From the NCBI GenBank assembly GCA_964512235.1, contig CAZEGD010000002.1:40768-104767 (forward strand): DNA of 64,000 nucleotides, in the 5' to 3' direction. The notes under the pieces were generated by a model. That model did not search any database. It was not told the DNA's origin and worked only from the letters and a program-made list of their open reading frames with translations. Source of the DNA: an uncultured archaeon. Lineage in GTDB: Archaea > Aenigmatarchaeota > Aenigmatarchaeia > CG10238-14 > SCSR01. Positions 31,436 through 55,270 of the stretch are shown here, in pieces. Each line of letters opens with the position of its first letter. Within the stretch, counting starts at the first letter, position 1. The position numbers were made by a program, and so were the translations under genes.

Positions 31436-31473
31436 AATAAATATACAGTTTTGAATTAAATTATAGTGATTGT

Positions 31474-32568
31474 ATGGGTTTGAAGCAACTTGAAAGGAAG
31501 CCGTTAGGAAGGATTAAGAAAAAAGGGGAAGACGAAGCACTCGAAGAGATACTTGCAAGGAAAGAAACTCGCATAAAAGTCGTGGGTGCCGGCGGTGCAG
31601 GTAACAACACTGTGACTAGGCTCATGCAAGTCGGTATAGTCGGCGCAGAGACAATTGCGGTAAATACGGACGCGCAGGACCTTCTGTACACGGATGCAGA
31701 CGTAAAGGTCTTAATAGGAAAGGAACTCACCGGTGGGCTTGGTGCAGGTGCAAATCCTGATATTGGTATGGAAGCCGCTAAAGAAAGTAAAGATGACTTG
31801 AAGAAAGCTTTGAAAGGAGCGGACATGGTTTTCCTAACATGCGGTCTGGGTGGTGGAACTGGTACGGGAAGCCTGCCTGTGATAGGTGATATAGCAAAAA
31901 GGTTGGGCCTCCTGACTGTCGCCGTTGTTACATTGCCATTCACAATGGAGGGCAGGCAACGTATGGACAATGCTAAGATGGGGCTTGAAAACTTGGAGAA
32001 TGTTGTCGACACGTTGATAGTTATACCGAATGACAAACTACTGGAGATTGTGCCGGATGTGAGCGTGCAAACGGCCTTCAAAATCGCAGATGAAATCCTT
32101 GTAAATTCTGTGAAAGGCGTTGCTGAACTTGTGACAAAGCCCGGCCTAGTCAATCTTGATTTTGCCGATGTTCGTGCAGTTATGAAGTCTGGTGGACTTG
32201 CAATGATTGGCATAGGAGAGAGCCAGACTGAGAATAGGGCGTTTGAAGCTGTCGAGCGTGCACTGAACAATCCATTGGTCAACATAGATATAAACGGTGC
32301 CATGGGTGCGCTGATAAACGTAATTGGAGGTCCGGATGTAACAATAAGGGAAGCGCAGCAGATTGTGGAAGCTGTCTCGACGAAGCTGTCGCCTGATGCG
32401 AAAATAATATGGGGTGCGCAGGTGGATAAGAACCTTGGCGATACTGTGAAAGCGATGCTGATAGTAACTGGTGTGAAGTCATCGCAGATATTTGGTCCTG
32501 GCAAACCGTGGACTAAGTCAAAGAAAATGCATATAGAAAAGGTTCTTGGTGTTGAATTCATGGATTAA
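31474..32568 (+). CDS. ftsZ: Cell division GTPase FtsZ
   Basis: GGGTGTG tubulin signature; VGAGGAGNN; NTDAQ. Confidence 0.95.
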   Translation: MGLKQLERKPLGRIKKKGEDEALEEILARKETRIKVVGAGGAGNNTVTRLMQVGIVGAETIAVNTDAQDLLYTDADVKVLIGKELTGGLGAGANPDIGMEAAKESKDDLKKALKGADMVFLTCGLGGGTGTGSLPVIGDIAKRLGLLTVAVVTLPFTMEGRQRMDNAKMGLENLENVVDTLIVIPNDKLLEIVPDVSVQTAFKIADEILVNSVKGVAELVTKPGLVNLDFADVRAVMKSGGLAMIGIGESQTENRAFEAVERALNNPLVNIDINGAMGALINVIGGPDVTIREAQQIVEAVSTKLSPDAKIIWGAQVDKNLGDTVKAMLIVTGVKSSQIFGPGKPWTKSKKMHIEKVLGVEFMD

Positions 32569-33993: not shown

Positions 33994-34051
33994 ACATTTT
34001 TAAACCTTAGCATTTAAATAACTCTTAACTGCTGCGGCAGGAGGTCTTAAT

Positions 34052-34672
34052 ATGGCCGACGAAAAAATTGTAGAAGCAATAAAAAAGCTGCGTGAGAGCA
34101 GCAAGAAGCGTAAATTCTCACAGAGTTTTGACCTTATCGTGAATCTGAAGAATATCGACACTAAGAAGCCCGAAGGGAAAATTAATGAGACTGTAGCACT
34201 TCCTAACGGTCGTGGCAAGCCTGCAAAAGTTGCAATCTTTAGTGACACTATAAAGAGTGATGAGTATAGAACAATTAAAGCTGCAGAGATAGAAAAACTT
34301 GGAAAGAATAAGCGTGATGTGAAGAAACTTGCGAATTCTGTAGATTTCTTCCTTGCTGAGCCTAAGCTGATGCCAATTGTTGGTAAGAACTTGGGTGTAG
34401 TGCTCGCACCCAGAGGGAATATGCCTATTGTAATTGCTGGAAACGCTGATGATGTAATCAAAAAGTTCAAGAATAGCACACGCGTGAAAGTCAAAGATTC
34501 GCCAGTGATACAATGTATAGTCGGGGCGGAAGTGATGTCTGATGAAAAAGTTGCAGAAAATATAGAAAGTGTGATGAAATTTTTAGAGAAGAAGTTGCCG
34601 AAGGGAAGGAACAACATAAAGAATGTCGCTGTCAAGCTGACTATGAGCAAGCCTGTGAAAATCGAGGTGTAA
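34052..34672 (+). CDS. rpl1: 50S ribosomal protein L1
   Basis: 206 aa, L1 fold signature; synteny. Confidence 0.93.
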   Translation: MADEKIVEAIKKLRESSKKRKFSQSFDLIVNLKNIDTKKPEGKINETVALPNGRGKPAKVAIFSDTIKSDEYRTIKAAEIEKLGKNKRDVKKLANSVDFFLAEPKLMPIVGKNLGVVLAPRGNMPIVIAGNADDVIKKFKNSTRVKVKDSPVIQCIVGAEVMSDEKVAENIESVMKFLEKKLPKGRNNIKNVAVKLTMSKPVKIEV

Positions 34673-34675
34673 AAC

Positions 34676-35527
34676 ATGGTAAGAGATGGAAAAATCAAAG
34701 CCGTGGAAATGATGCGCAAAAAGCTTGATGAGGCCGTAGTTATAGGACTCTTAGATATGCATAAGATGCCAAGCAGTCAGCTGCAGAGTATAAGGAAGGA
34801 GCTTAGGGATAAAGCTGAGATTAAGATGGTGAAGAAATCTATTTTGATGTTTGCCATGGAAAAGTCCAAAAAGGAAGGGTTGAAGAAGATTGAAGAACTT
34901 CTGCCGACACAGCCGACTATAGTCTTCACAAATATGGAGCCATTCAAGTTTTATGCATTAGTCAGCAAGCTGAGACTGCCGGCATATGCAAAGGCAGGTG
35001 ATGTAGTCGAGCATGACGTAAAAGTAAGCGCAGGTCCTACTTCACTCATGCCTGGCCCGGTCATCAGTGAATTGCAGAAAGTTGGCATACCTGCGACTAT
35101 ACAGGACGGTAAGATAGCCATAAGAAAGGATAAAACTGTGCTCAAAACTGGAGAGGAAGTGACTGCTGGTCTTTCAAGTATCTTCCGTAAACTAAAGATA
35201 CAACCTGTGACAGTTGGATTGAAAGTAGTCGCCATGCTCAAGGACAATGAAATTTATAAAAAGGATGCTCTAGAGGTTGTGAACGAATTGTCAAGGAAGT
35301 TACCACAGGCTTCACAGAATGCTTTAAATCTCTCAGTCTTTATTTGTTATCCAACTAAGCAAAATATCAAAGTTTTGATTGCCAAAGCTGCGAACGAAGC
35401 AAATGCAATAAATGCTTTGGCACCGAAGGAAGAGAAGGAGGAACCTGCTGCAGAAAAGCCTGCAGAGGAAACTAAGGATGAAGAGAAAGAAGAGGTTAAA
35501 GAAGAAACAAAGGAGGGAGAAGAATAA
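34676..35527 (+). CDS. rpl10: 50S ribosomal protein L10 (acidic P0)
   Basis: 283 aa with a C-terminal acidic EEKEE tail; synteny. Confidence 0.93.
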
Positions 35528-35867: not shown

Positions 35868-36509
35868 ATGAGAGATTTGATCGAACTTGCAAAGAAGATA
35901 AAGAATAAGGAATTGAGGGAAAAGGTAATCGATACTCTAAAGAATCCTAAGCTGTCAAGCAAGGATTTCAAAAAGTACCCAAGTGTGAAGATGGTGGATG
36001 CTCGTACGCCATTTACTGTGGGTGGTGGAATTTCGGTGGAGCGTGATGTTCTGAACCATACCATAGCTGTGGTGGATGCCTGTGAAAGAGTTGCCGATGT
36101 TTTTGAAAAGAGGTATGGCATGACTTTAAACAGGGACTATTTGCTCGCTGGTTCGATATTGCATGATATTATGAAGGTTTTTGAATGGAAGGTTGGAGCT
36201 CAAGGTGCTGAGCATAGCGGCATATTGCTTGATCATAGTATGCTGGCTGTGGCCGAGCTCTATCATCGGAATTTCCCAGAGCAGGTCATACATATAATTG
36301 CAAGCCATTTTGGAGAGAGTGGACCGACTCCACCAAGAAGCTTTGAGGCTTTGATTCTACACCATGTAGACACGCTGCTGTCGCTAGCGGAGTACCACAT
36401 GTATGCAGCCGCACAGCCTGCACAAATGCCGATTGTCCTTTTAGACGAGGAAATGATAAAAAAGATAAGTGGTGAATTACCTGAATCAGAGAAAGGAAAG
36501 TCTAAATGA
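35868..36509 (+). CDS. HD-superfamily phosphohydrolase
   Basis: H...HD...H...D pattern (SILHDIMK, HSGILLDHS). Confidence 0.65.
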   Translation: MRDLIELAKKIKNKELREKVIDTLKNPKLSSKDFKKYPSVKMVDARTPFTVGGGISVERDVLNHTIAVVDACERVADVFEKRYGMTLNRDYLLAGSILHDIMKVFEWKVGAQGAEHSGILLDHSMLAVAELYHRNFPEQVIHIIASHFGESGPTPPRSFEALILHHVDTLLSLAEYHMYAAAQPAQMPIVLLDEEMIKKISGELPESEKGKSK

Positions 36510-37518
36510 TCTTTTTGAAAAGGGGCATGAGTTTCTAAAAGATATAAAACCGGATGAAAAAGTTGCGTTGGTTCATCACACAGACCTTGACGGACTGTCC
36601 TCTGCAACTCTTATCAAGATTGGGTTGGAAAGACTCGGTGTAAAACTTTTTAGAATCGTCTCTGCAACCTACAGAAACCTAGAGGAAGTCGTCTGCAATT
36701 TGGAATGTGATAAAATTATTATAGTTGATATAGGAATGAAGGTAGAGTTCTGCGAATCTTTTACAAAACCGACATTATATATAGACCATCATCAACCTAG
36801 GGATTGTGTACAGAATGAAAAAATTCTATTCATCAATCCGGGGCTAGTGAATTTGGAGCTCTACCAGCCTGCATCTTACATAGTGTACAAATTCTTGTCA
36901 GGAATAGTTGATTTGAAAGATAAAGAATGGATATCTGTCTTGGGGATTGTGGGTGATTATGGATTTGAAGACTGTATGGATATTCTTGGGAAATGGACGG
37001 ATGCGAAGACGAGAGATGAACTGCTGGATGAGACAGACCTTGGAAAGACTTCAATCGCTATTAGCAACAGTATTTTCATCCTAGGCCTTGAAAGGATCAT
37101 GGAAATACTGCTGGATGAAAAAGATATGGAAAGTGTGGCCGCTAATATGGAGATTAAAAAAGCAAGTAATGAATATCAGAAAATGTACGATAAGGAAATG
37201 GAAAATTTTTGGAATAATCGTGAAGAAGTGGGTAAAATCCTGTTTTCTATTTTAAACCCTCCTTACGAGGGGGTGGGATCTGGAATTTCCAGTCGTGTCT
37301 CCAGAAAGAATCCGGAAAAGATAGTATTTTTATTCGAAGATATTGGAGAGAGGTACAAGATAAACACCAGGTATCAAGGTAAAGATTTGCATCTTGGTAA
37401 GTTTATGGAGAAAATATGTGGTGGTGGTGGCCACAGATGTGCTGCTGGCGGTTCCATAGACAAAGATGATTTGGATAGTTTCAAGGAAAGAGTGAAGAAA
37501 GAACTGAAAGTAAGCTAA
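36469..37518 (+). CDS. DHH/DHHA1-family phosphoesterase (NrnA-like nanoRNase/pAp phosphatase); 41-nt overlap with the upstream gene, so the true start may be downstream
   Basis: DHH motif IDHHQP; DHHA1 GGGH motif CGGGGHRCAAGGS. Confidence 0.75.
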   Translation: MVNYLNQRKESLNDLFEKGHEFLKDIKPDEKVALVHHTDLDGLSSATLIKIGLERLGVKLFRIVSATYRNLEEVVCNLECDKIIIVDIGMKVEFCESFTKPTLYIDHHQPRDCVQNEKILFINPGLVNLELYQPASYIVYKFLSGIVDLKDKEWISVLGIVGDYGFEDCMDILGKWTDAKTRDELLDETDLGKTSIAISNSIFILGLERIMEILLDEKDMESVAANMEIKKASNEYQKMYDKEMENFWNNREEVGKILFSILNPPYEGVGSGISSRVSRKNPEKIVFLFEDIGERYKINTRYQGKDLHLGKFMEKICGGGGHRCAAGGSIDKDDLDSFKERVKKELKVS

Positions 37519-43782: not shown

Positions 43783-44328
43783 ATGATTGATATGATACTT
43801 GTCTGGCAATTCTTTTCTATGTTTGGTAACATAGAATACTGGATAGCGCTGGTTGTCGGTTCTGTGCTGATTTATATAGCGTTACCAAGAAAGGACAAAA
43901 AACACGTTTCGTGGATAGTGTTTTCACTAATACCTGCAGCAATTTTAGCTTTCCAAACTGCCTATTTTTTGAAGCTTTGGTTTCAAGTGCCTAGACCTTG
44001 TTTAGGACTAATCGGCTGCCCAGGTTCATATTCCCTTCCCAGTAACCACGCGTCCATAATGTTTGCGGCTGCTGTTGTTATAGTGTTAAACATGAAAAAA
44101 CGTTTAGTGCAGATTGCTGCTATTGTTTTGGCTGTCCTGGTTTCGCTTTCACGTATAGCTTTGAATTACCATACTCCGTTGGACATAATAGTCGGATCTT
44201 TGATAGGTGTATTTAGTGGAGTTATAATCCAGAAAGTATATCAGAATATAACATTGTCATATTTTGAAAAAATCTCGTCTAAACGTCGCTCGTCAAAGCG
44301 TGGTCTGTCTAGACTTCTTGGGGTTTAG
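43783..44328 (+). CDS. PAP2-family (type 2 phosphatidic acid phosphatase) membrane phosphatase
   Basis: PAP2 motifs KxxxxxxRP-like VPRP, PSNHA, SRIALNYHTPLD. Confidence 0.75.
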   Translation: MIDMILVWQFFSMFGNIEYWIALVVGSVLIYIALPRKDKKHVSWIVFSLIPAAILAFQTAYFLKLWFQVPRPCLGLIGCPGSYSLPSNHASIMFAAAVVIVLNMKKRLVQIAAIVLAVLVSLSRIALNYHTPLDIIVGSLIGVFSGVIIQKVYQNITLSYFEKISSKRRSSKRGLSRLLGV

Positions 44329-46485
44329 CTTACTGTCAGTCTTTTCTCCAAGCTGGTCTTTTATCTGCACGGCTATATTCGGTCCTATTATTTTCTGGAG
44401 ACTAGATAATGGAATTTTTCTCAAGGCACTTATCGATTTTAAGTCTGCCTTATACAACCTACGCGCACGTACTCTGCCTATATTCTTTAGCTTCACCAAT
44501 GGCAGTATCTCTTTACGGACACCGTATTTTAGCCTAGTACGCACTTTTCTTATGTCTTTCAGCATCTCTTTTTTCCCAAGCAACAGGGCGAACTCTTGCA
44601 TCGCATATATCAACCAATCAGCAATGTTGAGCCTGCCACGCAACTCGCCTGGGGCAACACGAAACTTGCCTATGATATCGTCCTCGCTCATCTCGTTTGT
44701 CCAAGCTTCGAATAGTTTAGCGGTCTTCACGCTACGCAGGAAATCGTCAAATTCTAAGTCCCACTCTTCCGGAGCCTCGCAGAGAAACTCTGGTTCATGA
44801 GCCACTATGAATTCATTAAGTTCAGCAAAGTCGCCTGTGCGTACCCTGAGCATTGGCCGCATCTCCAGAGTACTGGAAATCGCATGTAGGAAGCTGAAAT
44901 GCTTCACATGTTTCTTGTCAGCTACCTCTATATTTTTGATGAAATTGTGCGCTGTCAATGGATCTATGTACAAATCTGATACTCGTTTTCCTAGTTTGGT
45001 GGGCTTCAGCTCTCCTCCTTTAGCAACTATGAATCTCCACGATTTCAGCATGTCTACCATTTCATAGAGTTTGCTCTCTATTGCAGACATGCTACCGTAT
45101 TGAAAAGCATAGAATGTTTGAGCGAAGAAGTTCATGAGTGTTTCCTCGGAGTTGACAAAGCTGCTTGCTATCAGGGCAAGTGTATGCATTCTAAGCACTG
45201 GCTCGACTGCAAGCTTTGAGTATATGTCTTCCGGCTCGCCAAGTATGAATCTTTCTACGAGGACGTCTGCCTCCTCTTCGGTTCTTGATATGATTATGGA
45301 TTCGCCAAAACTGTCAAACTGTGGCCTGCCAGCCCTACCTATGAACTGTTTGTATTCGAGTACTGGTATGTATGCTGCACCATGACCAGGATAGTAGCGT
45401 TTGGTATCTCGTATGACGACTCGGAATGCCGGCAGGTTTATACCCATCGCGAGCGTTGGTGTGGCTGTAATTATTTTTATCAAGCCTTTTCTGAAATTTT
45501 CCTCTATCAACCTTCGCTGCTTGCGGAGCAGGCCAGCATGGTGGAAAGCCATACCAGATTTTATACATGACGCCAATTTTTTACACTGTCTAGTCGGAGA
45601 TTCCAATACATTAAGTATGCTGTCTGCGGTCTTTGCAAGTTGGGACTGTTCTGCCTTTCCTATGTAAGACTTGCAAGCATGACTTAGCTTCTCAGCTAGA
45701 CTTTCTGCATTCCGCCTCGTTCCTACAAAAAATATTGCCTGCTTACGCATTTGCAAAGTCTGCTTGGCTGTCTCTATGTCCGGTTCTCCTGACGCCAATT
45801 CATAGTTGTCTTTGTTATAAAATTTTATCGAAGAGTTGTATGTTATACCTTCGTATAACTTAACCGGGCGGAATTCGCTTGTTACCAGCTCTGCCTTAAT
45901 CCAATCTGCTATGTCTTTTGCATTGCTGATGGTTGCGGAAAGGGCTATAGTTTGAGCGTCTGGCACTAGTTTTTTCAATCTTGTCAGAAGTATCTCCAGT
46001 GTTGGCCCCCGTGAAAAGTCATTCAGCAGATGGATTTCGTCCACTATCACAAGTCCTATGTCCGTCACCCAAAAGGAACCATGGCGTATGAGCGAGTCTA
46101 GCTTCTCTGTCGTGCATACTATTACATCATAATCAGCCAGCCAAGGACCTTTGGAATCCAAATTCCCAACAGATATCGCGACTTTGTACTTCTCAAAAAA
46201 CTTCTTGTAGTATGCATATTTCTCGTTTGCCAGCGCAACCAACGGTACAATATATACGCATTTCTTCCTCTTTTCCAGAGTCTTGACCATCGCCAAAGTC
46301 GCTACAAGCGTCTTCCCAGCCGCTGTAGGCACGGAAAGGACTAGGTTTTTACCATCAAGCACACCTGTCTTGATTGCATCTACTTGTGGTGGATAGAGAC
46401 TGGTTATCTTCTCTGACTTGATTCTATCTATAAAATGTTGGGGGATATTGAATTTTTCCAGATCTTGTACATTCATAACAGACAA
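44293..46485 (-). CDS. hel308: Ski2-like DNA helicase Hel308 (Hjm)
   Basis: Walker A PTAAGKT; DEIH box; ratchet and HhH C-terminal domains; 730 aa. Confidence 0.9.
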   Translation of the reverse strand: MSVMNVQDLEKFNIPQHFIDRIKSEKITSLYPPQVDAIKTGVLDGKNLVLSVPTAAGKTLVATLAMVKTLEKRKKCVYIVPLVALANEKYAYYKKFFEKYKVAISVGNLDSKGPWLADYDVIVCTTEKLDSLIRHGSFWVTDIGLVIVDEIHLLNDFSRGPTLEILLTRLKKLVPDAQTIALSATISNAKDIADWIKAELVTSEFRPVKLYEGITYNSSIKFYNKDNYELASGEPDIETAKQTLQMRKQAIFFVGTRRNAESLAEKLSHACKSYIGKAEQSQLAKTADSILNVLESPTRQCKKLASCIKSGMAFHHAGLLRKQRRLIEENFRKGLIKIITATPTLAMGINLPAFRVVIRDTKRYYPGHGAAYIPVLEYKQFIGRAGRPQFDSFGESIIISRTEEEADVLVERFILGEPEDIYSKLAVEPVLRMHTLALIASSFVNSEETLMNFFAQTFYAFQYGSMSAIESKLYEMVDMLKSWRFIVAKGGELKPTKLGKRVSDLYIDPLTAHNFIKNIEVADKKHVKHFSFLHAISSTLEMRPMLRVRTGDFAELNEFIVAHEPEFLCEAPEEWDLEFDDFLRSVKTAKLFEAWTNEMSEDDIIGKFRVAPGELRGRLNIADWLIYAMQEFALLLGKKEMLKDIRKVRTRLKYGVRKEILPLVKLKNIGRVRARRLYKADLKSISALRKIPLSSLQKIIGPNIAVQIKDQLGEKTDSKLNPKKSRQTTL

Positions 46486-46546
46486 AATTAGGATAATAAT
46501 GAATAAATAGGATTGTCGGACTGGGTGAGAAAAAGATAATTATATT

Positions 46547-46573
46547 AATCAGCGCCTATAGAGACCGCTGATT
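46547..46573. terminator. Hairpin (AATCAGCG-11 nt-CGCTGATT) just 3' of the PRC-barrel gene
   Basis: 8-bp inverted repeat. Confidence 0.35.
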
Positions 46574-46583
46574 GTAAGAAAGC

Positions 46584-46850
46584 TTAGATTAGTTCATTTT
46601 CACTGACGATTACGAAGTCGCCTATGCTCCTCACTGCACTGAATGGTATCAGTGATCTCCCCCTGTCATCTCCCTTGAGGTTAAGATCGCTTAGATGCTT
46701 CGTACTCTGCTCCACAATCAGGTTGAGGAGCTCTCCGCTCTCTGTTATGAAGTCTATGTTACTCACGACACCGAACTTTCTTCCAGTCTCTTCGCTGACT
46801 ATAGTCTTTCCAACTATGTCTGCGGCTCTTATTCTACTTTGGGCCATCAA
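46584..46850 (-). CDS. PRC-barrel domain protein
   Basis: 88 aa, PRC-barrel pattern (DIVGKTIVSEETGRKFGVVSNIDFITESGELLNLIV). Confidence 0.7.
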   Translation of the reverse strand: MMAQSRIRAADIVGKTIVSEETGRKFGVVSNIDFITESGELLNLIVEQSTKHLSDLNLKGDDRGRSLIPFSAVRSIGDFVIVSENELI

Positions 46851-46910
46851 AAATCACCTAATTATTATTCGTCTTTGATATTTTTAACCTTTATTCGTAT
46901 TAAATTAAGT

Positions 46911-47435
46911 ATGGGTCGCTGTTTTGTTGGTATAATGGTACCTGAACATATTAGAGATGTTGCTATATCTCTACAAAAGAGGCTTGCTGAGTTCGGGATG
47001 AAATGCAAGTTTGTAGAACCTAAAAATATGCATATATGCCTCTCTTTTCTTGGAGAGGTTGACGATAGGAAAATAGAAGATTTGAAGAGAGCGTTGGATG
47101 CTGTTGCTGAGCGGTATAAAAGTTTTGATATAAAAATTGGCAAGATGAAGTTCATTCCAAGCGAGAACTACATAAGGGTAATAGTTCTTAGTGTAGATGA
47201 CTTACTAGAAAGGATGAGGAAAGCTGTTGTGGAAGCCGTAGGCGGTGATTCTAAGCCACCTCATTTAACGCTTTGCCGTGTGAAGTATGTGGACGATAAG
47301 AAAAGATTTGTGAATGAGTTTGGTGAAGTTGTTTGTGGCGAGACTTTTCGTGTGGGCAGCATACAGTTGATTAAGAGCGAACTCCAAAGGAGTGGTCCAG
47401 TTTATACTGTTATACATGAGAGTAGACTATCTTGA
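46911..47435 (+). CDS. thpR: RNA 2',3'-cyclic phosphodiesterase (2H phosphoesterase, ThpR/LigT family)
   Basis: Two H-x-T/S-x motifs (MHICLSF and PHLTLCRV); start at MGRCFVGIMVP. Confidence 0.8.
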   Translation: MGRCFVGIMVPEHIRDVAISLQKRLAEFGMKCKFVEPKNMHICLSFLGEVDDRKIEDLKRALDAVAERYKSFDIKIGKMKFIPSENYIRVIVLSVDDLLERMRKAVVEAVGGDSKPPHLTLCRVKYVDDKKRFVNEFGEVVCGETFRVGSIQLIKSELQRSGPVYTVIHESRLS

Positions 47436-47852
47436 TTTCCATTTTTTCCTCTTTAAGAATCTCTTCCTATTCAATTCTTTACCATAGTGGTTGGCGTTGT
47501 TGATAAACTTAGCGACTTCCTTTAGTTCCTCTATTTTTGTTATCTTCAAGGATCTTTTGAAAAATTTACGCACTCTCCTTTCAATCTTGACATGGGAGGA
47601 ACGTAGGAGTTTTTCTAATTCTTCTGCCTTTCTTTTTCCATCTCTATCAAAGTCTGTGAGTATCACCACATTTTTTGAGTCCTCCAATTTCTCAGCAACA
47701 TTTTCCAATGATTGCCCCGAGATTGAGAATACATTCTTGATGCCTAAACCGGATAGTGCCTTTTTATCCCTCTTCCCCTCTACAACAAAAATAAAATCAT
47801 TTGTTCTCTCGACTATTCTTTCTAAAGAGTATATCTGCTTCGGTCTGAGCAT
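47427..47852 (-). CDS. Small Toprim-domain protein (COG1658-like)
   Basis: EGKRD ... LTDFDRDG Toprim acidic motifs. Confidence 0.65.
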   Translation of the reverse strand: MLRPKQIYSLERIVERTNDFIFVVEGKRDKKALSGLGIKNVFSISGQSLENVAEKLEDSKNVVILTDFDRDGKRKAEELEKLLRSSHVKIERRVRKFFKRSLKITKIEELKEVAKFINNANHYGKELNRKRFLKRKKWKSR

Positions 47853-47892
47853 TATTTCACCAATATGTTACACTTTCTGATACTGTAATGGT

Positions 47893-48684
47893 TCAGATTA
47901 TCTCTTCTAGAATATCTCTCTCTGTTATTATTCCTTCCAGTTTGTCTTCATCCACAACGAGTATGCCGCCAACATCTTTGTCTTTCATTAGTTTTAGCAC
48001 ATCCGACAAGTCCTTGTCTTTATCTATTGTATAGATATCTTTGATAATAATGGCATCCATAGATTCGTCCATTGCCTCCTGACTATACTTCTTCTCGTGT
48101 ATGTATCTTATCAAGTCTGCTACTGTTGTTATGCCTACTAGCTTGCCATCATCGACTACTGGCAATCTTCTATAACGTGTATTCACAACAGTCTTTAGGC
48201 AGTCGTATATAGAGATGTTAGATGAAATGAAAAATGGTTTTTTTGTCATACACTCCTCAATTTTTATGTTAAAGTCAATGTTTGAAAACCGCTTGACAAA
48301 ATCGCGTTCACTGATTACGCCGACAAGTTTCTCACCCTCAACAATAGGAAACCCGCCACGTCTTGAGAGTTTGAATTTTTGAAGGATAAAATCAAGCGTA
48401 TCGCCAATTTCGCAAAAAACTACATCCCTTACCATAATCGTCGATATTTTCTCTTCAAAATTAGTCTTCTTTAAAAAAGTATCAAGAATGTCAGAAGTTG
48501 TTAGGATGCCAATGAGTTTACGGGATTTAGAAGTGATTGGCATTCTTCTATAGTTTGTCTCTACAATCTTTTCAATAACTTCTGAGATTGAAAATTTTTC
48601 TTCACAGTAGATAGGATTCATATTCGCAATTTCAGATACCCTTTTAAACCTATCAAGGCCTGCATCTTCAAGTTTTATAGTCAT
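47893..48684 (-). CDS. CBS-domain protein (four CBS repeats)
   Basis: Repeated CBS pattern (..VGILT.SDIL.., ..VGVISERDF.., ..VGITTVADL.., ..EGIITERDIL). Confidence 0.8.
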   Translation of the reverse strand: MTIKLEDAGLDRFKRVSEIANMNPIYCEEKFSISEVIEKIVETNYRRMPITSKSRKLIGILTTSDILDTFLKKTNFEEKISTIMVRDVVFCEIGDTLDFILQKFKLSRRGGFPIVEGEKLVGVISERDFVKRFSNIDFNIKIEECMTKKPFFISSNISIYDCLKTVVNTRYRRLPVVDDGKLVGITTVADLIRYIHEKKYSQEAMDESMDAIIIKDIYTIDKDKDLSDVLKLMKDKDVGGILVVDEDKLEGIITERDILEEII

Positions 48685-49220
48685 TCTCCCAATTCATCTC
48701 GGCAGTGTTCACACAACCATTTACCCTGCACATTTCTCAATTCTTCAAAATAATCCCCACAAGAATCACATATTCCTGATGTGGATGGTTCGACTATTTT
48801 CGTAGTCATATCCCTCAGTTTTATTTTATACTCCAACAGGTCTACCATTTCAGGTGACGCACGAGCCACGTCAGAAAGTTCAATTATACCGATAATCTTC
48901 CCGCTTTCTATAACTAATAATCGTTTTATTCTATTCTTCTTCATCTTTCTCGCAGCTTCTAAGACATCCTCATTCGGACCGATTGTAACGATTGGTTTGG
49001 ACATGACCTTTTCGACTTTGATTGAGGATGGTTTTTTGTTTTTTGCAATCACTTGTTTAATCAAATCGCTATCTGTAATTACGCCTACAGGGTTGCCCTT
49101 TTTAGTCACTATCAGAGAATATCTTTTATTCTTTCTCATTATTCCTCCAGCTACTTTTGTGCTTTGATTAATACCAATTGTCAACGGTTTTTGCATTATT
49201 TCTTTGACTTTCAAAACCAT
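48681..49220 (-). CDS. CBS-pair protein with a C-terminal zinc ribbon
   Basis: Two CBS repeats plus CDSCGDYF...CEHC. Confidence 0.75.
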   Translation of the reverse strand: MVLKVKEIMQKPLTIGINQSTKVAGGIMRKNKRYSLIVTKKGNPVGVITDSDLIKQVIAKNKKPSSIKVEKVMSKPIVTIGPNEDVLEAARKMKKNRIKRLLVIESGKIIGIIELSDVARASPEMVDLLEYKIKLRDMTTKIVEPSTSGICDSCGDYFEELRNVQGKWLCEHCRDELGE

Positions 49221-49246
49221 TCTATCACCTTAATAATATTGAATCT

Positions 49247-49594
49247 TCATACTATAAATTTTCTCAAAAATTCTTCTAGTGGTTTCCCATTTTTAGGCGT
49301 GACTTTCTTCTTTGGAGGCAGAATGCGTATGTTCCCATAACCAAAATCTACGACAAGAAAGAAAGGGAACTTCTCTAATTTTTTCTCCATATATTCATAG
49401 TAGTAGAATGTCTTCTTTTTTGTCGACTTCACTTGCGAGAGTATGCATTTTCCTGACTTTAAACAAATTAAATCTGCTTCACCCAAACTTGCTCCTGCAC
49501 GTATGACCTTCCATCCAGCAGATTCAAACCTTTGTCTTATCTTTCTCTCAACCCTATAACCACGCATTCTGTTTTTGCCACGTCTGGAAGACAT
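49247..49594 (-). CDS. hjc: Holliday junction resolvase Hjc
   Basis: GYRVERKIRQRFESAGWKVIRAGAS..EADLICLKSGKCILSQVKST matches the Hjc catalytic core (E..D..E.K). Confidence 0.8.
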   Translation of the reverse strand: MSSRRGKNRMRGYRVERKIRQRFESAGWKVIRAGASLGEADLICLKSGKCILSQVKSTKKKTFYYYEYMEKKLEKFPFFLVVDFGYGNIRILPPKKKVTPKNGKPLEEFLRKFIV

Positions 49595-49651: not shown

Positions 49652-50329
49652 GTGAAAATACTTGCAGTGTCTGACATACACAATGATGTAGAAATGCTCA
49701 TGCCTTATCTTGAGAAGGCTGCTGAATTAAATGTGGATGTTGTTGTGTGCCCAGGCGATTTCACTGATTTTAACTTACCTAAAGGGTTTACTAGAATTGA
49801 AATGGCAAAGCTCATTCTTGAAGAATTAAAAAGTCTTGGCAAACCTATAGTTGCCGTGCCGGGGAATCAAGATAAAGAAATATTGAATTTGTTGGAAAAG
49901 GATGGTGTGAGTATTCATGGCAGCGGTAAGGTTATAGATGGTGTTGGCTTCTATGGTTTTGGTGGTGCAAAGACACCATTTAACACCTCATATGAGCCCG
50001 ATGAAAGTGAAATAGATGCTGGTTTGAGGAAAGCGTATGAAGACGTAAAAAACATAAAAATAAAGGTCCAAGTGACACACAATCCTCCTGTAAACACAAA
50101 ACTCGATATACTTCCTTCCGGTGCTCATATTGGCTCGGAAGTCGTGAGAAAATTTATTGAAGATAGGGGGCCTGTGGCAGCAATCTGTGCGCATGTACAT
50201 GAGTCACGTGGTACAGATAGTATAGATAATTGTAAGGTAATAAATAGTGGACGGTTTCCAGAAGGATATTGTGGTTTGATAGAGATTAAAGATGGTTTGG
50301 CAAGTGTGAAAATAGTCAGTTTGATATAG
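49652..50329 (+). CDS. Calcineurin-like metallophosphoesterase
   Basis: DIHND...GDFTD...GNQD...H..H motifs. Confidence 0.8.
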   Translation: MKILAVSDIHNDVEMLMPYLEKAAELNVDVVVCPGDFTDFNLPKGFTRIEMAKLILEELKSLGKPIVAVPGNQDKEILNLLEKDGVSIHGSGKVIDGVGFYGFGGAKTPFNTSYEPDESEIDAGLRKAYEDVKNIKIKVQVTHNPPVNTKLDILPSGAHIGSEVVRKFIEDRGPVAAICAHVHESRGTDSIDNCKVINSGRFPEGYCGLIEIKDGLASVKIVSLI

Positions 50330-50450: not shown

Positions 50451-50846
50451 TTGATGTCTGAAGCGGAAGTTAAATTCCAGATACAAGAAGAAATAAAGGA
50501 TCTGAAGTCTCTCAATGTTGGTGTTGTTTTGGAGTTGGCTGAGAGGTTAGATTTTCTAGATGTGCAAATTTTGCGCAAGTTTTATATGACAGGGAAGGAG
50601 TTCCCACACGACACACAACCATTCTGCTTTCCCATGTTGTTCCAGGAGATGAAGGTTAGCCACCACCTTAAGATAGGTATTGAGGCGTTGAGGAAGAGGT
50701 TGAATAATTTTGTGGGGATGGGGCTGCTCGAGAAAATCGAAAATAGCAACCCAACAAACTATATGCCCATAGACGGCAAAGAACAGTTAGCTCGTGGTGT
50801 GGTGGTCAAGTTCTTTCTCATACATGGTCTTACAAAATTCATATAA
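50451..50846 (+). CDS. Hypothetical protein, possible winged-helix regulator
   Basis: 131 aa; VQILRKFY...LRKRLNNFVGMGLLEKI. Confidence 0.4.
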   Translation: MMSEAEVKFQIQEEIKDLKSLNVGVVLELAERLDFLDVQILRKFYMTGKEFPHDTQPFCFPMLFQEMKVSHHLKIGIEALRKRLNNFVGMGLLEKIENSNPTNYMPIDGKEQLARGVVVKFFLIHGLTKFI

Positions 50847-50915
50847 CCCTCTATAGTGTTATGAAGATTTCGTATATGTGTTTAAAATTATCTAAATAGT
50901 TGTTCGGAAAAATAT

Positions 50916-51147
50916 TTATGGGTGTTCAGAGTATTTTTTATGGGTGTTCCAATTGTTTTGTATGATGTTTCCAACGAAAAAACAAAATGTTTCACATCAA
51001 AAACCATGTAGGTGTGTGGTGTTTGTGTTTACAGGGGTTGGTGGTGTTACAAACAACTAACAACTATAACAATGTTATAATAAATATAATATAAACAATA
51101 AAACACACCACAACAATAAAACACACACATATACAAAACCCAACAAG
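50916..51147. promoter_or_regulatory. Structured non-coding region with three blocks (see evidence)
   Basis: Direct repeat TTATGGGTGTTC x2 (50916, 50938). GT-rich block (51009..51048) followed by an AT spacer and an AC-rich block with AACAATAAAACACAC x2 (51095..51147). Strong strand-compositional asymmetry and an imperfect long inverted repeat. Confidence 0.4.
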
Positions 51148-51215
51148 AAAGATTTCAAAAAACAACTTAAGTTTATTAGCAAACGTTTATTTTTATAACT
51201 AGTCATAAAAAATAT

Positions 51216-51473
51216 ATGAAGCGAGGAAGACCAAGCACACGTAAGAAAATTACACCACTAATATTGAAACATTTAGAAAATTCGAAACTCCCATTAACAA
51301 TATCTTCACTGGCTAGAATAATATCTAAAGATGTTGGATATACAGTCAGTTGGAACACAATAGAAAAGTACCTTAGAGAGAATATAGAGACCAACAAAAT
51401 ACAAGCCATATCTCTACCACACTCTAAAAAAGAGGGAAAGAGTGGGCTTACGGTCTACGTCCTAAAGAAATAA
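51216..51473 (+). CDS. Small winged-helix DNA-binding protein (85 aa), first gene of the wHTH-DP1like-polB cluster
   Basis: ITPLILKHLENSKLPLTISSLARIISKDVGYTVSWNTIEKYL plus a wing. Confidence 0.5.
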   Translation: MKRGRPSTRKKITPLILKHLENSKLPLTISSLARIISKDVGYTVSWNTIEKYLRENIETNKIQAISLPHSKKEGKSGLTVYVLKK

Positions 51474-51491: not shown

Positions 51492-52562
51492 ATGGGAAAA
51501 AACAATATAATAAAGAAATTTCTAAGCGTTGGGGTGCAATTGAGTAAGGATGCATTAGACCATTTTATAATTAACGAAAAAGACATAGATGTATTCATTG
51601 AAAGATCTGGAAAAATAAAAGAAAGGCCGAAAATAGTCACATTATCTACAGTTCAAAGAGTCCTTAGTACACCAAACGGCCTCTCCATTGGTGTGAAAGC
51701 AACCAGTTTTGTAGCCGAAGGTGAAAAGGTATCAATTAGAAGTCTTGTCAATGATTTGACAAACAAATACAACCTACTCAAACACATTCTGGAAGGTAAG
51801 AATGGGTTGAGTAAATTGATATCTATAAATAAAATTTCACCAAATACTAAAGAATTTTCTATAATATGTATGGTTAATGATGTGAATAGAAATTCAGTTA
51901 CCGTGGAAGACACAACTGGTGAACTCACACTATATTTTGATGATATAAAAGACACAATTCTACCAGACGACGTGATTGGATTGATGTGTGAACAGAAGGG
52001 GGGTAGATTTCTCATAAAGGACATAATGTGGCCTGACATTCCACTAAAGAGGGGAGTAAAGAAGTCAAAAAAGAAAATCAACTGTATTTTTCTTGGCACT
52101 GAGGTATCAGAAATATATATTGAAAACGGTGAGGCGATACTCTTTGCATTTGGCTCGCCGAGAAAGTTGAATCTAAACAATGTAAAGAGTACAGAACACA
52201 TATTCTTGGACGAAAACATGAAGGAAAAGAAAAAATCAGTCTTTAAACCACCCATCATCGTAGAACTAAATGGTATAAATGTTGTAATTCTCAGCACAAA
52301 CCTGATTCAAAAGTATAAAAAATATTGGAAGAAAGAGGAGGACATAATAAAAAATCTTTTGAAGAGGAGAGATATAGATCCCATTCAAGACATTACAGGT
52401 CAACGTTACACATCCTCTGTGCTAGAGTCACCTCCAGATATAGTTGTGGTTGCAGACGAAGGCACAAAGAGTTTAAACTATAAGGGAACTACAATACTAT
52501 CGGTCTCAAAGAATAGCGGCTATTATATAGATTTGAACACAAGAGAAGTTAAAAAGATATAA
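51492..52562 (+). CDS. DNA polymerase B-subunit-like protein (PolD small subunit DP1 / eukaryotic Pol alpha-delta-epsilon B-subunit homolog) with a degenerate, truncated phosphoesterase domain
   Basis: N-terminal helical domain parallels DP1 (IIKKFLSVGVQLSKDALDHFI... vs FVKSLLKANYLITPSAYYLL...). OB-fold block SIICMVNDVNRNSVTVEDTTGELTLYF...LPDDVIGLMCEQKGGRFLIKDIMWPDIP parallels DP1 TIIGLVNS...EIEDLTGKVKVFL...LPDAVVAFKGVYSKRGILYANKFYLPDVP. The metallophosphatase motif I (ISDIHVGS in DP1) reads INCIFLGTEV, so catalytic residues are lost, and the C-terminal part is ~130 aa shorter. Confidence 0.65.
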   Translation: MGKNNIIKKFLSVGVQLSKDALDHFIINEKDIDVFIERSGKIKERPKIVTLSTVQRVLSTPNGLSIGVKATSFVAEGEKVSIRSLVNDLTNKYNLLKHILEGKNGLSKLISINKISPNTKEFSIICMVNDVNRNSVTVEDTTGELTLYFDDIKDTILPDDVIGLMCEQKGGRFLIKDIMWPDIPLKRGVKKSKKKINCIFLGTEVSEIYIENGEAILFAFGSPRKLNLNNVKSTEHIFLDENMKEKKKSVFKPPIIVELNGINVVILSTNLIQKYKKYWKKEEDIIKNLLKRRDIDPIQDITGQRYTSSVLESPPDIVVVADEGTKSLNYKGTTILSVSKNSGYYIDLNTREVKKI

Positions 52563-52579
52563 AATAATAGATTTTATCT

Positions 52580-55270
52580 ATGGAGACTCTCTTTCAGGTT
52601 CTAGATTCAGACTATATAATGGTAAACAACAAACCTGTGATCAGGTTGTTCGGAAAAGAAAAGAGCGGGAGGACAATATGTGCTTTCCTAGAAGGTGAAC
52701 TACCATATTTCTTTATTCTCGTGAACGATGAAGAAAAAGCAATAAAATTCATCGAAAAAGAGTTTTCAAACCTCGTTGTGAAAATAGATACAGTTAAAAA
52801 ATACCTTCCAATGGGGTTTCAGAAGACCAAAACAAAGCTGCTTAAAATAATATTGAAAGAGCCATCAAAGGTACCATCAATCCGCGATGAACTTAAAAAA
52901 AAGAAATTTGTAGATCAGATATTTGAGGCAGATATACTTTTCAAATATAGGATGATGGTCGACAAGGGTATACGTGGGATGGGTTGGGTAAAAGTTAAAG
53001 GTTCAGCAGTTAACACACACACTGTTAAAACAGATTGTTGCATACAGGCGAAAACACTGAACGTTGTAGATAATGAAGACAACGCACCATTGAGATACTT
53101 GAGTATAGACATCGAGACGCATTTTAGTGATGTAATTGGACCTAGCCCGAGAAAGGACAAAATTATAATGGTGAGTCTATATTTTTCTCCATCATACAGA
53201 GGTAAAGATTCGCTCGTCCTTATTTCGAAGAACACCAAGGACAACAAAGATACAATCTGTTGTGAAAACGAGAAGAAAATGTTGCAAGAATTCCTGAAGA
53301 TTGTAGATGCGTTTGACCCAGACATAATCCTCGGGTACAATATAAACAACTTCGACTTTCCATTCATTATGGACAGACTTAGGATAAACAACTTACCAAG
53401 AACCATGGGCAGATGCAACATAAAGAATGCTGTCTCAAGGAAGTTTGGCATGAGGTTTAGAAATTCAGTCACAGGTAGAGTAATAGTAGATGTATACGAA
53501 CTCATCAAAGAATCCGCTAGCAAAGGATTCATGAGAATGAAGAGGTATGGTCTTGGGGACGTATCTAAAAATCTGATAAACGAGGAAAAAATAAAGATTG
53601 CACATAGTGAAATTGTAAAATATTGGAACGGTGATGAAAAGCATCTGGAGAAGCTGATAGAATATTCAAGAAAGGACTCATACCTAGCCATGAAGTTATT
53701 GTTGGAAAAAGAACTGTTGGATAAATTTTTCGAGCTTTCTAAGGTCTCGGGCATACTCTTGCAGGATGTATTGTCGAGTGGTGAAGCTATGCGCGTGGAA
53801 AATTTGGTTTTGGAAGAATTTAACAAGAGAGATTATGTGATACCATGCAAACCAGATAATGCAGAAATGGAGAGGAGGAGTGTCGAAAGAGAAAAGAAAG
53901 CGCTAAAAGGAGCTCTTGTACTCGAACCGGATGCAGGTCTGCATACAACACCTATAGTCTATCTTGATTTCAAGAGCATGTACCCATCTATAATTATTTC
54001 ATATAATATTTGCCCGACTACTTTCCTACAACCTAACCAGAAACCAAAATCAATCAAAACACCATACAACACTAGATTTACAGACAGGACTGTGAAAGAA
54101 GGCATACTACCCAAAATACTCACAGACTTGATAAAAACAAGGGATGTCGTAAAAAAAGAGATTAAAAGGACTAAGAGCGAAGAAAAGAAGAAAAGTTTGG
54201 ACGCTAAACAATATGCACTAAAAGTTATGGCTAATGCCTTTTATGGCTATACCGGATACGTACGTGCTAGGCTCTATGTTTTAGACATAGCAAACACTAT
54301 AACAGCATCTGGACGCTATCTTATCCAAAAGACAAGAGACATAGTTGAAGAAGGGTCAAAATACAAAGTTGTATACGGTGATACAGATTCGATAATGGTA
54401 AAGGTAGGTGTCGAAGATTTGGAGGAAGCATTCAAAATCGGTAGAGAGATTGAGAAAAAAATAAATGATGAATTGAAAGGTATAGTGGAAATGAAAATAG
54501 AGTCCGTCTTCAAGTCCTTAGTGATACTGACGAAAAAAAGATATGCAGGAATGAGCTATGAAAAATATGATGGTGAATGGAAAGAAAAAATGATGATGAA
54601 AGGTATAGAGACTGTCAGAAGGGACTGGTGCGATCTTGTCAGTGAGACATTGTTCACTGTCTTGGAAATTATACTAAAAGAACAGAACCCCAAAAAAGCC
54701 CTTAATCATGTGAAAAGTGTTATGGCCAAGTTGCAAAGGAACGAAGTCCCAGTGGAAAAGCTAGTTATAACGAAGAGCATGACAAAACCTATAAGGTCGT
54801 ACAAAGGAATACAGCCACATATAGAACTCGTTAAAAAATTGAGAAAGCGTTCTCCAACAGAAGCTCCTGGAGTGGGTGACAGAATAGGCTATGTAATAGT
54901 CCAAGGATTACAAATAATTTCTAATAGGTCAGAAGACCCCGATTATATTAAAGCGCACAATATGAAAGTAGATTCTAAATATTACATGGAAAGCCAGTTG
55001 CTACCGCCACTTGAAAGGTTGTTTGAAGTTATCGGAATTGACAAGACTGAGCTTCTGGGCAGAGGCAAGCAGCTACTGCTTGGCGATGCAATAAAAAATG
55101 GAAGAAACAAGAAAATTGTAGACTCTTTGAGCAAATCAGATGGTGTTATATGTAGCAAGTGTAATAAAACGTTTAGGCGCCCCCCACTTTCAGGTAAGTG
55201 TACAACATGTAGCGGAGAGATATTATTCTTTTCTGGAAATGTTAGGTCAAAACACTTCAGTCCATCCTAA
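52580..55270 (+). CDS. polB: Family B DNA polymerase with intact exonuclease and polymerase motifs and a C-terminal Cys4 zinc-finger module
   Basis: Exo I YLSIDIET, Exo II YNINNFDFPF, Exo III YSRKDSYLA; Pol A DFKSMYPSII, Pol B KVMANAFYGYTG, Pol C YGDTDS; C-terminal CSKCNKTFRRPPLSGKCTTCSG. Confidence 0.93.
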   Translation: METLFQVLDSDYIMVNNKPVIRLFGKEKSGRTICAFLEGELPYFFILVNDEEKAIKFIEKEFSNLVVKIDTVKKYLPMGFQKTKTKLLKIILKEPSKVPSIRDELKKKKFVDQIFEADILFKYRMMVDKGIRGMGWVKVKGSAVNTHTVKTDCCIQAKTLNVVDNEDNAPLRYLSIDIETHFSDVIGPSPRKDKIIMVSLYFSPSYRGKDSLVLISKNTKDNKDTICCENEKKMLQEFLKIVDAFDPDIILGYNINNFDFPFIMDRLRINNLPRTMGRCNIKNAVSRKFGMRFRNSVTGRVIVDVYELIKESASKGFMRMKRYGLGDVSKNLINEEKIKIAHSEIVKYWNGDEKHLEKLIEYSRKDSYLAMKLLLEKELLDKFFELSKVSGILLQDVLSSGEAMRVENLVLEEFNKRDYVIPCKPDNAEMERRSVEREKKALKGALVLEPDAGLHTTPIVYLDFKSMYPSIIISYNICPTTFLQPNQKPKSIKTPYNTRFTDRTVKEGILPKILTDLIKTRDVVKKEIKRTKSEEKKKSLDAKQYALKVMANAFYGYTGYVRARLYVLDIANTITASGRYLIQKTRDIVEEGSKYKVVYGDTDSIMVKVGVEDLEEAFKIGREIEKKINDELKGIVEMKIESVFKSLVILTKKRYAGMSYEKYDGEWKEKMMMKGIETVRRDWCDLVSETLFTVLEIILKEQNPKKALNHVKSVMAKLQRNEVPVEKLVITKSMTKPIRSYKGIQPHIELVKKLRKRSPTEAPGVGDRIGYVIVQGLQIISNRSEDPDYIKAHNMKVDSKYYMESQLLPPLERLFEVIGIDKTELLGRGKQLLLGDAIKNGRNKKIVDSLSKSDGVICSKCNKTFRRPPLSGKCTTCSGEILFFSGNVRSKHFSPS

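Follow-up and report, generated by a model that had tools for sequence, protein, structure and literature searches.

What is the purpose of a long spacer that stands between two small genes of the same strand, immediately ahead of the genes for a replicative DNA polymerase? The question is raised by 64,000 nucleotides (nt) of contig CAZEGD010000002.1 from an uncultured archaeon (this whole stretch is referred to below as the window), and it concerns the 369 base pairs (bp) at 50847-51215. The original prediction, made from the letters alone, spoke of a "replication-associated control region" or an operator for the winged-helix protein encoded next to it. A function of the region, and its link to the winged-helix gene, are supported by its phylum-wide position, phased repeats, a palindrome and a promoter; the analogy with the Pyrococcus origin layout, which was drawn at the same time, fails on a defining point. 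In our opinion the spacer is most likely an operator/promoter platform through which two winged-helix proteins would autoregulate the polymerase operon; judging from the sequence, we give this reading an even chance. The features on which it is built are the following (aa, amino acids; ORF, open reading frame).

50847-51215, 369 bp: the spacer, between the 131-aa ORF and the 85-aa ORF, both on the plus strand.
50454-50846, plus strand: MarR/RosR-like predicted winged-helix protein of 130-131 aa ("wH-A"), directly upstream of the spacer.
50873-50997, plus strand: array of six iteron units in an exact 22-bp register, with unit starts at 50873, 50895, 50917, 50939, 50961 and 50983.
51065-51079, no strand assigned: palindrome TATAACAATGTTATA, whose conserved core ATAAC-N3-GTTAT is ATAACAATGTTAT at 51066-51078 (13 bp).
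51147-51162, plus strand: inverted iteron-like box GAAAGATTTCAAAAAA, of opposite orientation and on the promoter side of the palindrome; absent from the matrix hits described below.
51186-51215, plus strand: promoter core, i.e., TATA box TTTATTTTTATAA (51186-51198) followed by TAGTCATAAAAAATAT (51200-51215) with an iteron half-site, up to the ATG.
51216-51473, plus strand: predicted winged-helix protein of 85 aa ("wH-B"), first gene of the polymerase operon.
51492-52562, plus strand: DP1-like B-subunit (NCBIfam PolD small subunit, residues 3-201, E 3.5e-18).
52580-55270, plus strand: PolB with a DP2-like C-terminal zinc finger (Pfam DNA_pol_B, E 1.8e-119).

The named relatives of the locus belong to Candidatus Aenigmatarchaeota, a DPANN phylum. 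The comparison set consists of 35 genome loci, four closer metagenome loci and eight further loci fetched by DNA pattern, the relatives' loci being about 12 kb each. The spacer keeps its position in all of the related genomes examined (35/35), within a conserved order of phosphoesterase, 131-aa gene, long spacer, 85-aa gene, DP1-like gene and PolB, as far as the contigs reach; a secD-like gene on the opposite strand comes next after PolB in many loci. Across the 35 genome loci the spacer measures 220-1183 bp and is never shorter than 220 bp, and its A+T content is 73-83% in most loci.

The array occupies the upstream part of the spacer. Its periodicity is evident from autocorrelation (z = 6.8 at lag 22) and from Tandem Repeats Finder, which reports a period of 22. 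A position weight matrix that converged from the relatives' spacers gives the family consensus TATGAAnnTTC(C)nnA, with the dyad core GAAnnTTC, and its hits at 50917, 50939 and 50961 are the strongest copies in the window. In the spacers the density of matrix sites is about 15 times that of the flanking 10 kb. Related spacers contain 92 of these sites, against 5.6 +/- 2.3 in shuffled spacers; since these very spacers served to train the matrix, that comparison is in part circular. Independent of this circularity is the count of phased site pairs (21-23 or 43-45 bp apart), which is 48 in the related spacers and 0 in 100 shuffles.

Two units of the array are what the original prediction described as a 12-nt direct repeat: TTATGGGTGTTC is indeed present twice, at 50916-50927 and 50938-50949, 22 bp apart. 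The repeats named there are real; however, the least conserved of them were stressed, and both the six-unit register and the palindrome were missed. When the conservation of the repeats in relatives is checked, the 12-mers are kept as a family, whereas the AACAATAAAACACAC repeat and the GT- and AC-rich blocks are limited to the window's own clade. The iteron is altered to ATGTTTGCAC in a hot-spring clade, where there are three direct copies and one inverted, the inverted GTGCAAACAT lying about 170 bp from the three ATGTTTGCAC copies; the 131-aa protein of this clade is only 35-40% identical to that of the window.

The most conserved element of the spacer is the palindrome, which lies inside what had been called simply an AT spacer. 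ATAAC-N3-GTTAT has its sole copy in the window here, 150 bp before the start codon of the 85-aa gene, with 0.07 copies expected. Eighteen of the 35 genomes have it exactly once per locus, always within this spacer, with invariant arms and a variable centre. Its distance upstream of the first ATG is 125-170 bp in 17 of these 18; in L035, which has an inserted ORF, it is 789 bp. L047 and L048 keep the palindrome about 130 bp from the first ATG downstream of the promoter despite a 216-aa ORF inserted before the 85-aa gene, which suggests that the upstream elements are tied to the promoter. The 20-mer ACTATAACAATGTTATAATA, which includes the palindrome, was found in ten metagenome contigs, eight of them with the same synteny and including genomes of 49-56% GC; the palindrome-containing 20-mer is identical in genomes spanning 37-56% GC.

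Closer to the gene, the inverted box at 51147-51162 has a counterpart in most relatives, GAAAnTTCATAAAAA, an inverted matrix hit at -31 to -61 before the ATG; the pattern AAGAA..T.TCAAAAA is invariant among close relatives. The window has in addition the half-site TCATAAAAA between the TATA box and the ATG. The 30-mer at 51186-51215 is 100% identical in the window and in L040, L042 and L044, though the 85-aa protein itself is only 71-76% identical among them. Similar A/T-rich TATA-like stretches lie about 25-35 nt upstream of genes at other promoters of the window, and the transcript from the promoter at 51186-51215 is probably leaderless. At loci of the L006/L019 type the TATA box lies inside an inverted repeat of the iteron half-sites TTCATAAAAAT and TTATTTCTATGAA. 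Inverted partial iterons over the promoter of an adjacent gene are a hallmark of iteron operators, and they are found here at the level of sequence.

In several relatives (L008, L010, L018, L031, L035, L045 and L047/L048; e.g., L047 13352-14002) the control region and the 85-aa gene are separated by an additional ORF of about 200-220 aa. No Pfam family is assigned to it. The motif IDF..G(I/V)E(A/V)KG in its N-terminal part resembles, by eye, that of a PD-(D/E)xK nuclease, and the winged helix at its C-terminus is a relative of the 131-aa protein (hhalign 89.6%, E 1.9e-6, for the ORF of L035).

The 85-aa ORF is a real gene, as originally proposed, having homologues in 42 clusters at 48-100% identity, and a winged-helix fold is likewise supported by its AlphaFold2 model. 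The model (predicted local distance difference test, pLDDT, of 89) has the order helix-helix-helix-strand-strand, with helices at 6-22, 29-40 and 46-58 and strands at 62-68 and 76-83. The best Foldseek matches are PadR-like/TA0346, Phr, RTP and AbfR2, with a template modelling (TM) score of 0.77 to 3elk. The recognition helix SWNT(V/I)(Q/E)KY is invariant, and the wing reads LPHSK...G.TVY. Across 42 sequences K2, R3, G4 and R5 of the N-terminus MKRGRP are invariant, and M1 and P6 nearly so. With its GRP core, basic flanks and flexible segment (the first ten residues have a pLDDT of 71), this N-terminus may be AT-hook-like, which is our own reading of the motif. With 82 representatives in 1.84 billion proteins at E <= 0.001, the family is a narrow one. 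In the hot-spring clade a paralogue of 75-77 aa (MPRKPFG..., SWHT(V/I)(N/Q)KY) is found upstream of the 85-aa gene (L025 604-837, L031 5121-5348, and also L034 and L036).

The likely start of the 131-aa gene is ATG 50454, the ORF list beginning at TTG 50451. The protein has 303 homologues (56-94% identity among the matches listed), and it is even better conserved than the 85-aa family. It is modelled by AlphaFold2 at a pLDDT of 80 as a winged helix with added N- and C-terminal helices, and its top Foldseek matches are ST1710/MarR, RosR and TubR. Thus the two models have, as predicted folds, the three helices and the beta-hairpin wing of a winged helix, with MarR-type terminal helices. Neither protein matched a curated family (Pfam, NCBIfam) at E <= 0.01, with noise only at E <= 10; among sequences of solved structures the 85-aa profile had no match at E <= 10, and the best for the 131-aa protein was at E 0.57. 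IMG/VR holds homologues of neither, and PLSDB and GenBank phages hold none of the 131-aa family (the 85-aa protein was not queried there).

The connection between the proteins and the sites is best seen in a distant lineage of 60-62% GC. Distant members of the 85-aa family in contigs of about 60% GC retain MKRGRPA.R... and GW.T..KY, and MKRGRP is kept in most of the GC-rich relatives retrieved. There the homologue of the 85-aa gene directly follows a gene of about 130 aa, with adjacent or overlapping stop and start codons, and the ~130-aa protein is a homologue of the 131-aa protein of the window (hhalign probability 98.9%, E 2.8e-17). Considering this adjacency and homology, we regard the two genes as an ancestral pair. 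The spacer just downstream of the pair carries the palindrome, as ATAACAGTGTTAT in L078 and ATAACACTGTTAT in L083; L084 has the 13-mer of L083, its only copy in 20 kb of 62% GC DNA, and L085 and L086 have a version with one mismatch. From base composition alone, by our own arithmetic, about 0.005 copies of ATAAC-N3-GTTAT are expected per 20 kb of such contigs. The same spacer also contains three iterons at exactly 22 bp and then a typical archaeal TATA box. Beyond it there is a gene with a sigma70-region-4-like helix-turn-helix (in L084, a 160-aa ORF without a family), and then an Orc1/Cdc6-like gene (Cdc6_lid; WHD_Cdc6 in L085), 0.6-0.9 kb from the cis module and convergent to the module of the winged-helix pair.

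L078 7245-8408: Orc1/Cdc6-like gene, convergent.
L084 11807-12697: Orc1/Cdc6-like gene, convergent.
L085 2034-2849: Orc1/Cdc6-like gene, convergent.

Since the same palindrome and 22-bp iterons stand beside the same gene pair in a distant lineage, we consider the two proteins and their sites to be a co-inherited module; the genes and the sites travel and vary together, which is a strong argument that these proteins bind these sites. Aenigmatarchaeota have a different layout, in which the two genes flank the cis region and the polymerase operon starts with the 85-aa gene; within the GC-rich stretches retrieved there is no polymerase gene. The surroundings there include hypothetical small ORFs and restriction-modification, DUF4007/PAPS-reductase and ThiF/ThiS-like genes, and these islands are probably integrated mobile or defence elements of a GC-rich archaeon. 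A mobile element was probably the source from which the module reached the chromosome of Aenigmatarchaeota, and the polymerase genes perhaps arrived with it. Upstream of the GC-rich gene pair we also note a further conserved element, TTTTAAG(C/T)C and then a direct repeat CGTGCC-N3-CGTGCC (L078 5330-5611, L081 1-436, L083 660-941, L084 9598-10000, L085 1-377).

If the spacer is an operator/promoter platform, the pair would occupy the iterons at 50873-50997, the palindrome at 51066-51078 and the half-sites at 51147-51162 and 51200-51215, which bracket the TATA box. Occupancy close to the promoter would block or tune the access of TBP, TFB and RNA polymerase, and would feed back on the transcription of the operon comprising the 85-aa gene, the DP1-like gene and PolB; because one regulator is encoded in the operon, the control would be autoregulatory. 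The upstream array together with an easily bent AT/microsatellite core may allow a cooperative, possibly looped nucleoprotein complex, and the AT-rich minor groove next to the palindrome could accommodate the RGRP arm of the 85-aa protein. Half-sites that bracket or overlap the TATA box are the layout expected of an operator, and dyad symmetry, which dimeric winged-helix regulators need in their sites, is present in the iteron core GAAnnTTC as well as in the 13-mer. Autoregulated archaeal regulators (ST1710, RosR, Phr, Lrs14/AbfR) are alike in fold class, in dyad-symmetric sites and in the overlap of these sites with, or their position beside, the TATA box of their own operon. They differ from the present case, in which the proteins always occur as a pair and belong to no Pfam or NCBIfam family, a long array and a palindrome lie more than 100 bp upstream, and the genes regulated would be those of a replicative polymerase.

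Several points weigh against an operator. Three to six phased sites reaching 300 bp upstream exceed the needs of an ordinary archaeal operator, and an AT-only island of about 90 bp is kept even in genomes of 56% GC; both are origin-like. The TATA box lies about 110 bp downstream of the palindrome, a distance too great for direct occlusion. Even clades that have no palindrome keep the recognition helix of the 85-aa protein unchanged, so the pairing of protein and site is ambiguous; no residues obviously separate the genomes with the palindrome from those without it. Finally, the 85-aa protein might instead be an accessory subunit of the polymerase.

A replication origin is the alternative that we take most seriously, though as a tentative one that stands clearly behind the operator. 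The spacer would then be an origin, chromosomal or captured from a mobile element, to which the winged-helix pair and/or an Orc1/Cdc6 encoded elsewhere binds, the overlap with the promoter giving autoregulation as in iteron plasmids. In its architecture the spacer suits an origin just as well. Repeats in both orientations surround an AT-rich core, as in archaeal origins (array at 50873-50997, core at 51050-51105, inverted box at 51147-51162, with relatives alike), while the 22-bp phasing and the inverted repeats of half-iterons at the promoter recall iteron replicons. The persistence of the AT-only island in genomes of 49-56% GC, the position at the head of a replicative polymerase operon among Hel308, Toprim and Hjc genes, and the location of the GC-rich cis module 0.6-0.9 kb from an Orc1/Cdc6-like gene point the same way. 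The conserved central motif is comparable to the ucm of Sulfolobus oriC1, a short essential motif inside the unwinding element between origin recognition boxes (ORBs) that is bound by a small protein (PMC12141716).

The gene expected beside such an origin is absent, however. The 64 kb of the window contain no Orc1/Cdc6 gene, and in about 45 related loci there is none within 6 kb: among the scanned ORFs of the window there is no member of the Cdc6/AAA family (the only ORF of at least 150 aa with a Walker A motif is EF1A-like), and none of the 78 ORFs of 300-480 aa in the related loci has a Walker A motif. The analogy with the Pyrococcus order oriC-cdc6-DP1-DP2, on which the original prediction leaned, fails on this defining point. 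Nor are the repeats ORB-like: the iteron has GAA before TTCC with a 2-nt gap (GAA-N2-TTCC), and does not match the mini-ORB arrangement TTCC-N4-GAA, "TTCCAGTGGAACT" and core motifs (PMC1904270). In GC-rich loci it is the 3' end of the cdc6-like gene, not its 5' end, that faces the module, and the AT-richest stretches of the window are found outside the spacer. Rep proteins are missing from the Foldseek matches listed for either protein, and both proteins are no closer to the winged-helix domains of Rep or Orc than to those of generic regulators. Our literature search on Aenigmarchaeota origins or Orc1 returned nothing usable.

Strand composition gives a weak signal. In 15 of 19 loci the sign of the GC skew is reversed at the palindrome, which would suit an origin. 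The coding-corrected cumulative skew at third codon positions (GC3) has a broad peak at 48-51 kb within the 64-kb window, and the skew at four-fold sites, pooled over 33 loci of relatives, changes sign weakly, from +0.027 to -0.024, with 11 of 19 loci in agreement. In all three measures the G-rich strand runs towards the site, which in bacteria is the pattern of a terminus; the signal is thus weak, confounded by gene identity and of terminus polarity. Four minus-strand ORFs (19068-19508, 27444-28136, 31461-32561 and 34000-34719) have a coding-strand GC3 skew of -0.25 to -0.47, against about +0.14 in real genes here; they may be spurious antisense frames, and they inflate the corrected curve at 19-35 kb.

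By comparison with archaeal origins such as those of Pyrococcus and Sulfolobus (oriC1), the spacer is alike in its repeats of both orientations around an AT-rich core, its short central motif, its replication-gene neighbours and its small basic DNA-binding proteins. It differs in the missing orc1/cdc6, in the GAA-N2-TTCC arrangement and in a weak skew of opposite polarity; moreover, UBP, which binds ucm in Sulfolobus, is not a winged-helix protein. Iteron replicons (pPS10 RepA, F RepE, R6K pi) are nearer in layout, with 22-bp direct repeats (three to six here), an AT-rich tract, inverted half-iterons over the promoter and winged-helix proteins alongside. The mark of the iteron type, three or more direct repeats of about 17-22 bp phased at about 22 bp, is present also in the GC-rich relatives (three copies), whose mobile-element-like setting is a further resemblance. 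The differences are an archaeal host, a chromosomal site that a whole phylum has conserved, an extra 13-bp palindrome, and two separate single-domain winged-helix proteins flanking the array in place of one Rep-type initiator with two such domains; any replication activity here is putative. Since iteron replicons use the same sites for both purposes, operator and origin need not, by this analogy, be mutually exclusive.

It is also conceivable, though we think it rather unlikely, that the spacer is a plasmid-style iteron origin independent of Orc1. Its initiator would be split into the two winged-helix proteins, one for each half-site of every 22-bp iteron, and it would have been captured with the eukaryote-like PolB/B-subunit polymerase from a mobile element and become a fixed part, essential for replication, of the chromosomes of Aenigmatarchaeota.

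Improbable, in our opinion, is the proposal that the 85-aa protein serves chiefly as a third subunit of the PolB/DP1-like polymerase, resembling the B-subunit-binding N-terminal winged-helix domain of the third subunit of eukaryotic Pol delta, with the spacer being an ordinary promoter plus lineage-specific low-complexity DNA. It would account for the place of the 85-aa gene in the polymerase operon of every Aenigmatarchaeota locus, with gaps of 17-18 nt (in the window, 18 nt between the 85-aa and DP1-like genes and 17 nt between the latter and PolB), and for helix and wing residues that are invariant even where the DNA motifs differ. However, the GC-rich homologue occurs without a polymerase gene, paired with the homologue of the 131-aa protein and with the same DNA motifs; the conservation of the spacer is far above that of a plain promoter, and the fold hits include no Pol32/p66-like match.

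A still more doubtful candidate is a centromere-like or architectural site, at which phased repeats would seed the cooperative assembly of a small winged-helix protein into a filament, as in TubR/tubC, ParR/parC and AspA on pNOB8. Such a site would serve to segregate DNA or to organise chromatin locally, and autoregulation would be a side effect. An array of phased direct repeats beside a small winged-helix gene is a hallmark of such centromeres and is what we observe; TubR is among the structural neighbours of the 131-aa protein, and the related module sits in mobile-element-like islands. On the other hand, the contexts seen contain no adjacent motor gene of the ParA, TubZ or ParM type, the module is joined to a polymerase operon and not to a partition operon, and the Foldseek matches are generic for winged helices.

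The remaining part of the spacer consists of low-complexity DNA on both sides of the palindrome.

51007-51048, plus strand: GT-rich low-complexity block, clade-specific and partly kept only in the closest relatives L040 and L042.
51052-51066, plus strand: AACAACT x2 microsatellite abutting the palindrome (Tandem Repeats Finder).
51076-51102, plus strand: AT-only tract (TATAATAAA)x3, directly 3' of the palindrome (Tandem Repeats Finder).
51094-51136, plus strand: AC-rich 18-bp repeat (AACAATAAAACACAC x2), lineage-specific; beyond L040 only its composition is kept.

The GT-rich block (about 51007-51048), the AT-rich spacer and the AC-rich block reported originally are all present, AACAATAAAACACAC does occur twice (51094-51108 and 51112-51126), and the strand asymmetry is real, the GC skew being +0.36 to the left and -0.88 to the right of the centre. 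The microsatellites beside the palindrome are strand-asymmetric and vary by lineage (AACAACT, ACTAA, TATAATAAA, (GAA)n, GT- or AC-rich tracts). In the alignment (ACTAA)n or (AATTAATAA)n occupies the place of 51052-51066 in relatives, distant relatives have other strand-asymmetric tracts instead of the GT-rich block, and equivalent AATATAATATAA tracts are found in relatives, including genomes of 49-56% GC. The claim that the blocks form an "imperfect long inverted repeat" had to be abandoned: the DNA fold of 51000-51145 has z = 0.35 and is equalled or bettered by 125 of 200 dinucleotide-preserving shuffles, and the best left/right complementarity around the centre is no better than in shuffles (p ~0.24), likewise in most loci. 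The apparent GT/AC symmetry is compositional, considering that any GT-rich tract complements an AC-rich one.

A structured non-coding RNA, or chance low-complexity repeats, for which one could cite a spacer that is long for a compact genome and GT and AC blocks that could pair, is barely credible given the absence of an Rfam match in the spacer at the gathering threshold or at E <= 1, a spacer-wide RNA folding energy equal to that of dinucleotide-preserving shuffles (z = 0.25), palindrome arms that never co-vary and offer a stem of 5 bp only, and phasing and cross-lineage conservation far beyond chance. A C/D-box interpretation of ATGATGT was also considered and dropped, there being, by eye, no D box at a suitable distance.

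The palindrome itself invited two further comparisons. A dif/Xer site was rejected: the symmetry centre is a single base, with arms of 5-7 bp and a centre of 1-3 bp, as against two arms of about 11 bp and a centre of 6-8 bp (11-6-11 in Thermococcales dif). The 18-mer around the palindrome has 21 viral matches, which we attribute to chance, as they lie in AT-rich contigs without synteny. Within the window a relative of this 18-mer with three mismatches, TATGACAATGTTATATTC, is found at 44244-44261 on the minus strand, at the end of a PAP2 gene and overlapping the start of a Hel308-like gene; this match is probably due to chance.

The polymerase genes themselves are as originally predicted, a DP1-like protein followed by PolB. 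Residues 855-883 of PolB match the C-terminus of the PolD large subunit (positions 1041-1069, E 1e-5), and the C-terminal part of the DP1-like protein has a faint DNA_pol_E_B match (E 0.13). The passages of Kazlauskas et al. (2020, PMC7544198) that deal with this polymerase describe an Aenigmarchaeota PolB group, B6-aenigma1, together with an inactivated DP1 in a lineage without DP2. The genes at 51492-55270 correspond to that group as those passages define it, with a single DP2-like Zn-binding C-terminal domain in PolB and a DP1-like B-subunit beside it (PMC7544198). The polymerase pair being published, the gene cluster is not new. Its provenance, possibly from a mobile element, is posed there as a question; the two winged-helix genes and the repeat-bearing spacer are unmentioned in the same passages (PMC7544198).

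Operator arrays, iterons and archaeal origins are likewise known as kinds of element. What is new is two unannotated winged-helix proteins that are always paired with ATAAC-N3-GTTAT and 22-bp iterons; a description of this pair and its family of sites was not found in the literature searched. We believe that the observation is of interest in several respects. The PolB/DP1-like pair is the closest archaeal analogue of eukaryotic polymerases composed of a catalytic subunit and a B-subunit, and its operon, found throughout the phylum, would be headed by a deeply conserved cis-regulatory platform. The occurrence of the platform and the protein pair elsewhere, in islands beside Orc1/Cdc6-like genes, gives testable support to the idea that the module derives from a mobile element. 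For a new two-protein DNA-binding family the predicted sites are now precisely defined as ATAAC-N3-GTTAT and the 22-bp iterons, and the spacer offers a marker position for testing replication initiation in an uncultured DPANN phylum.

The conserved block begins upstream of the 131-aa gene with one more member.

49652-50329, plus strand: stand-alone calcineurin-like metallophosphoesterase of 225 aa (Pfam Metallophos, E 1.5e-17), first gene of the conserved block.

It retains 54-65% identity and synteny in nearly all relatives with enough upstream sequence, and its best sequence match of solved structure is only aq_1956 (E 1.4e-5). It stands two genes upstream of the DP1-like protein, whose own phosphoesterase domain is degenerate. 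Just upstream again, on the minus strand, 44293-49594 holds a replication/repair cluster with a Hel308-like helicase (44293-46485), a small Toprim protein (47427-47852), two CBS-domain proteins and Hjc (49247-49594).

The archaeal nature of the window follows from an intron-containing tRNA gene and from the genes for fibrillarin, Nop5 and EF1A. The tRNA gene, an Rfam match at 29583-29709 (127 nt, with an apparent intron), was missed by ARAGORN in bacterial mode. Farther off in the window there are a NucS-like gene (11465-12433) and a DHH/DHHA1 gene (36469-37518).

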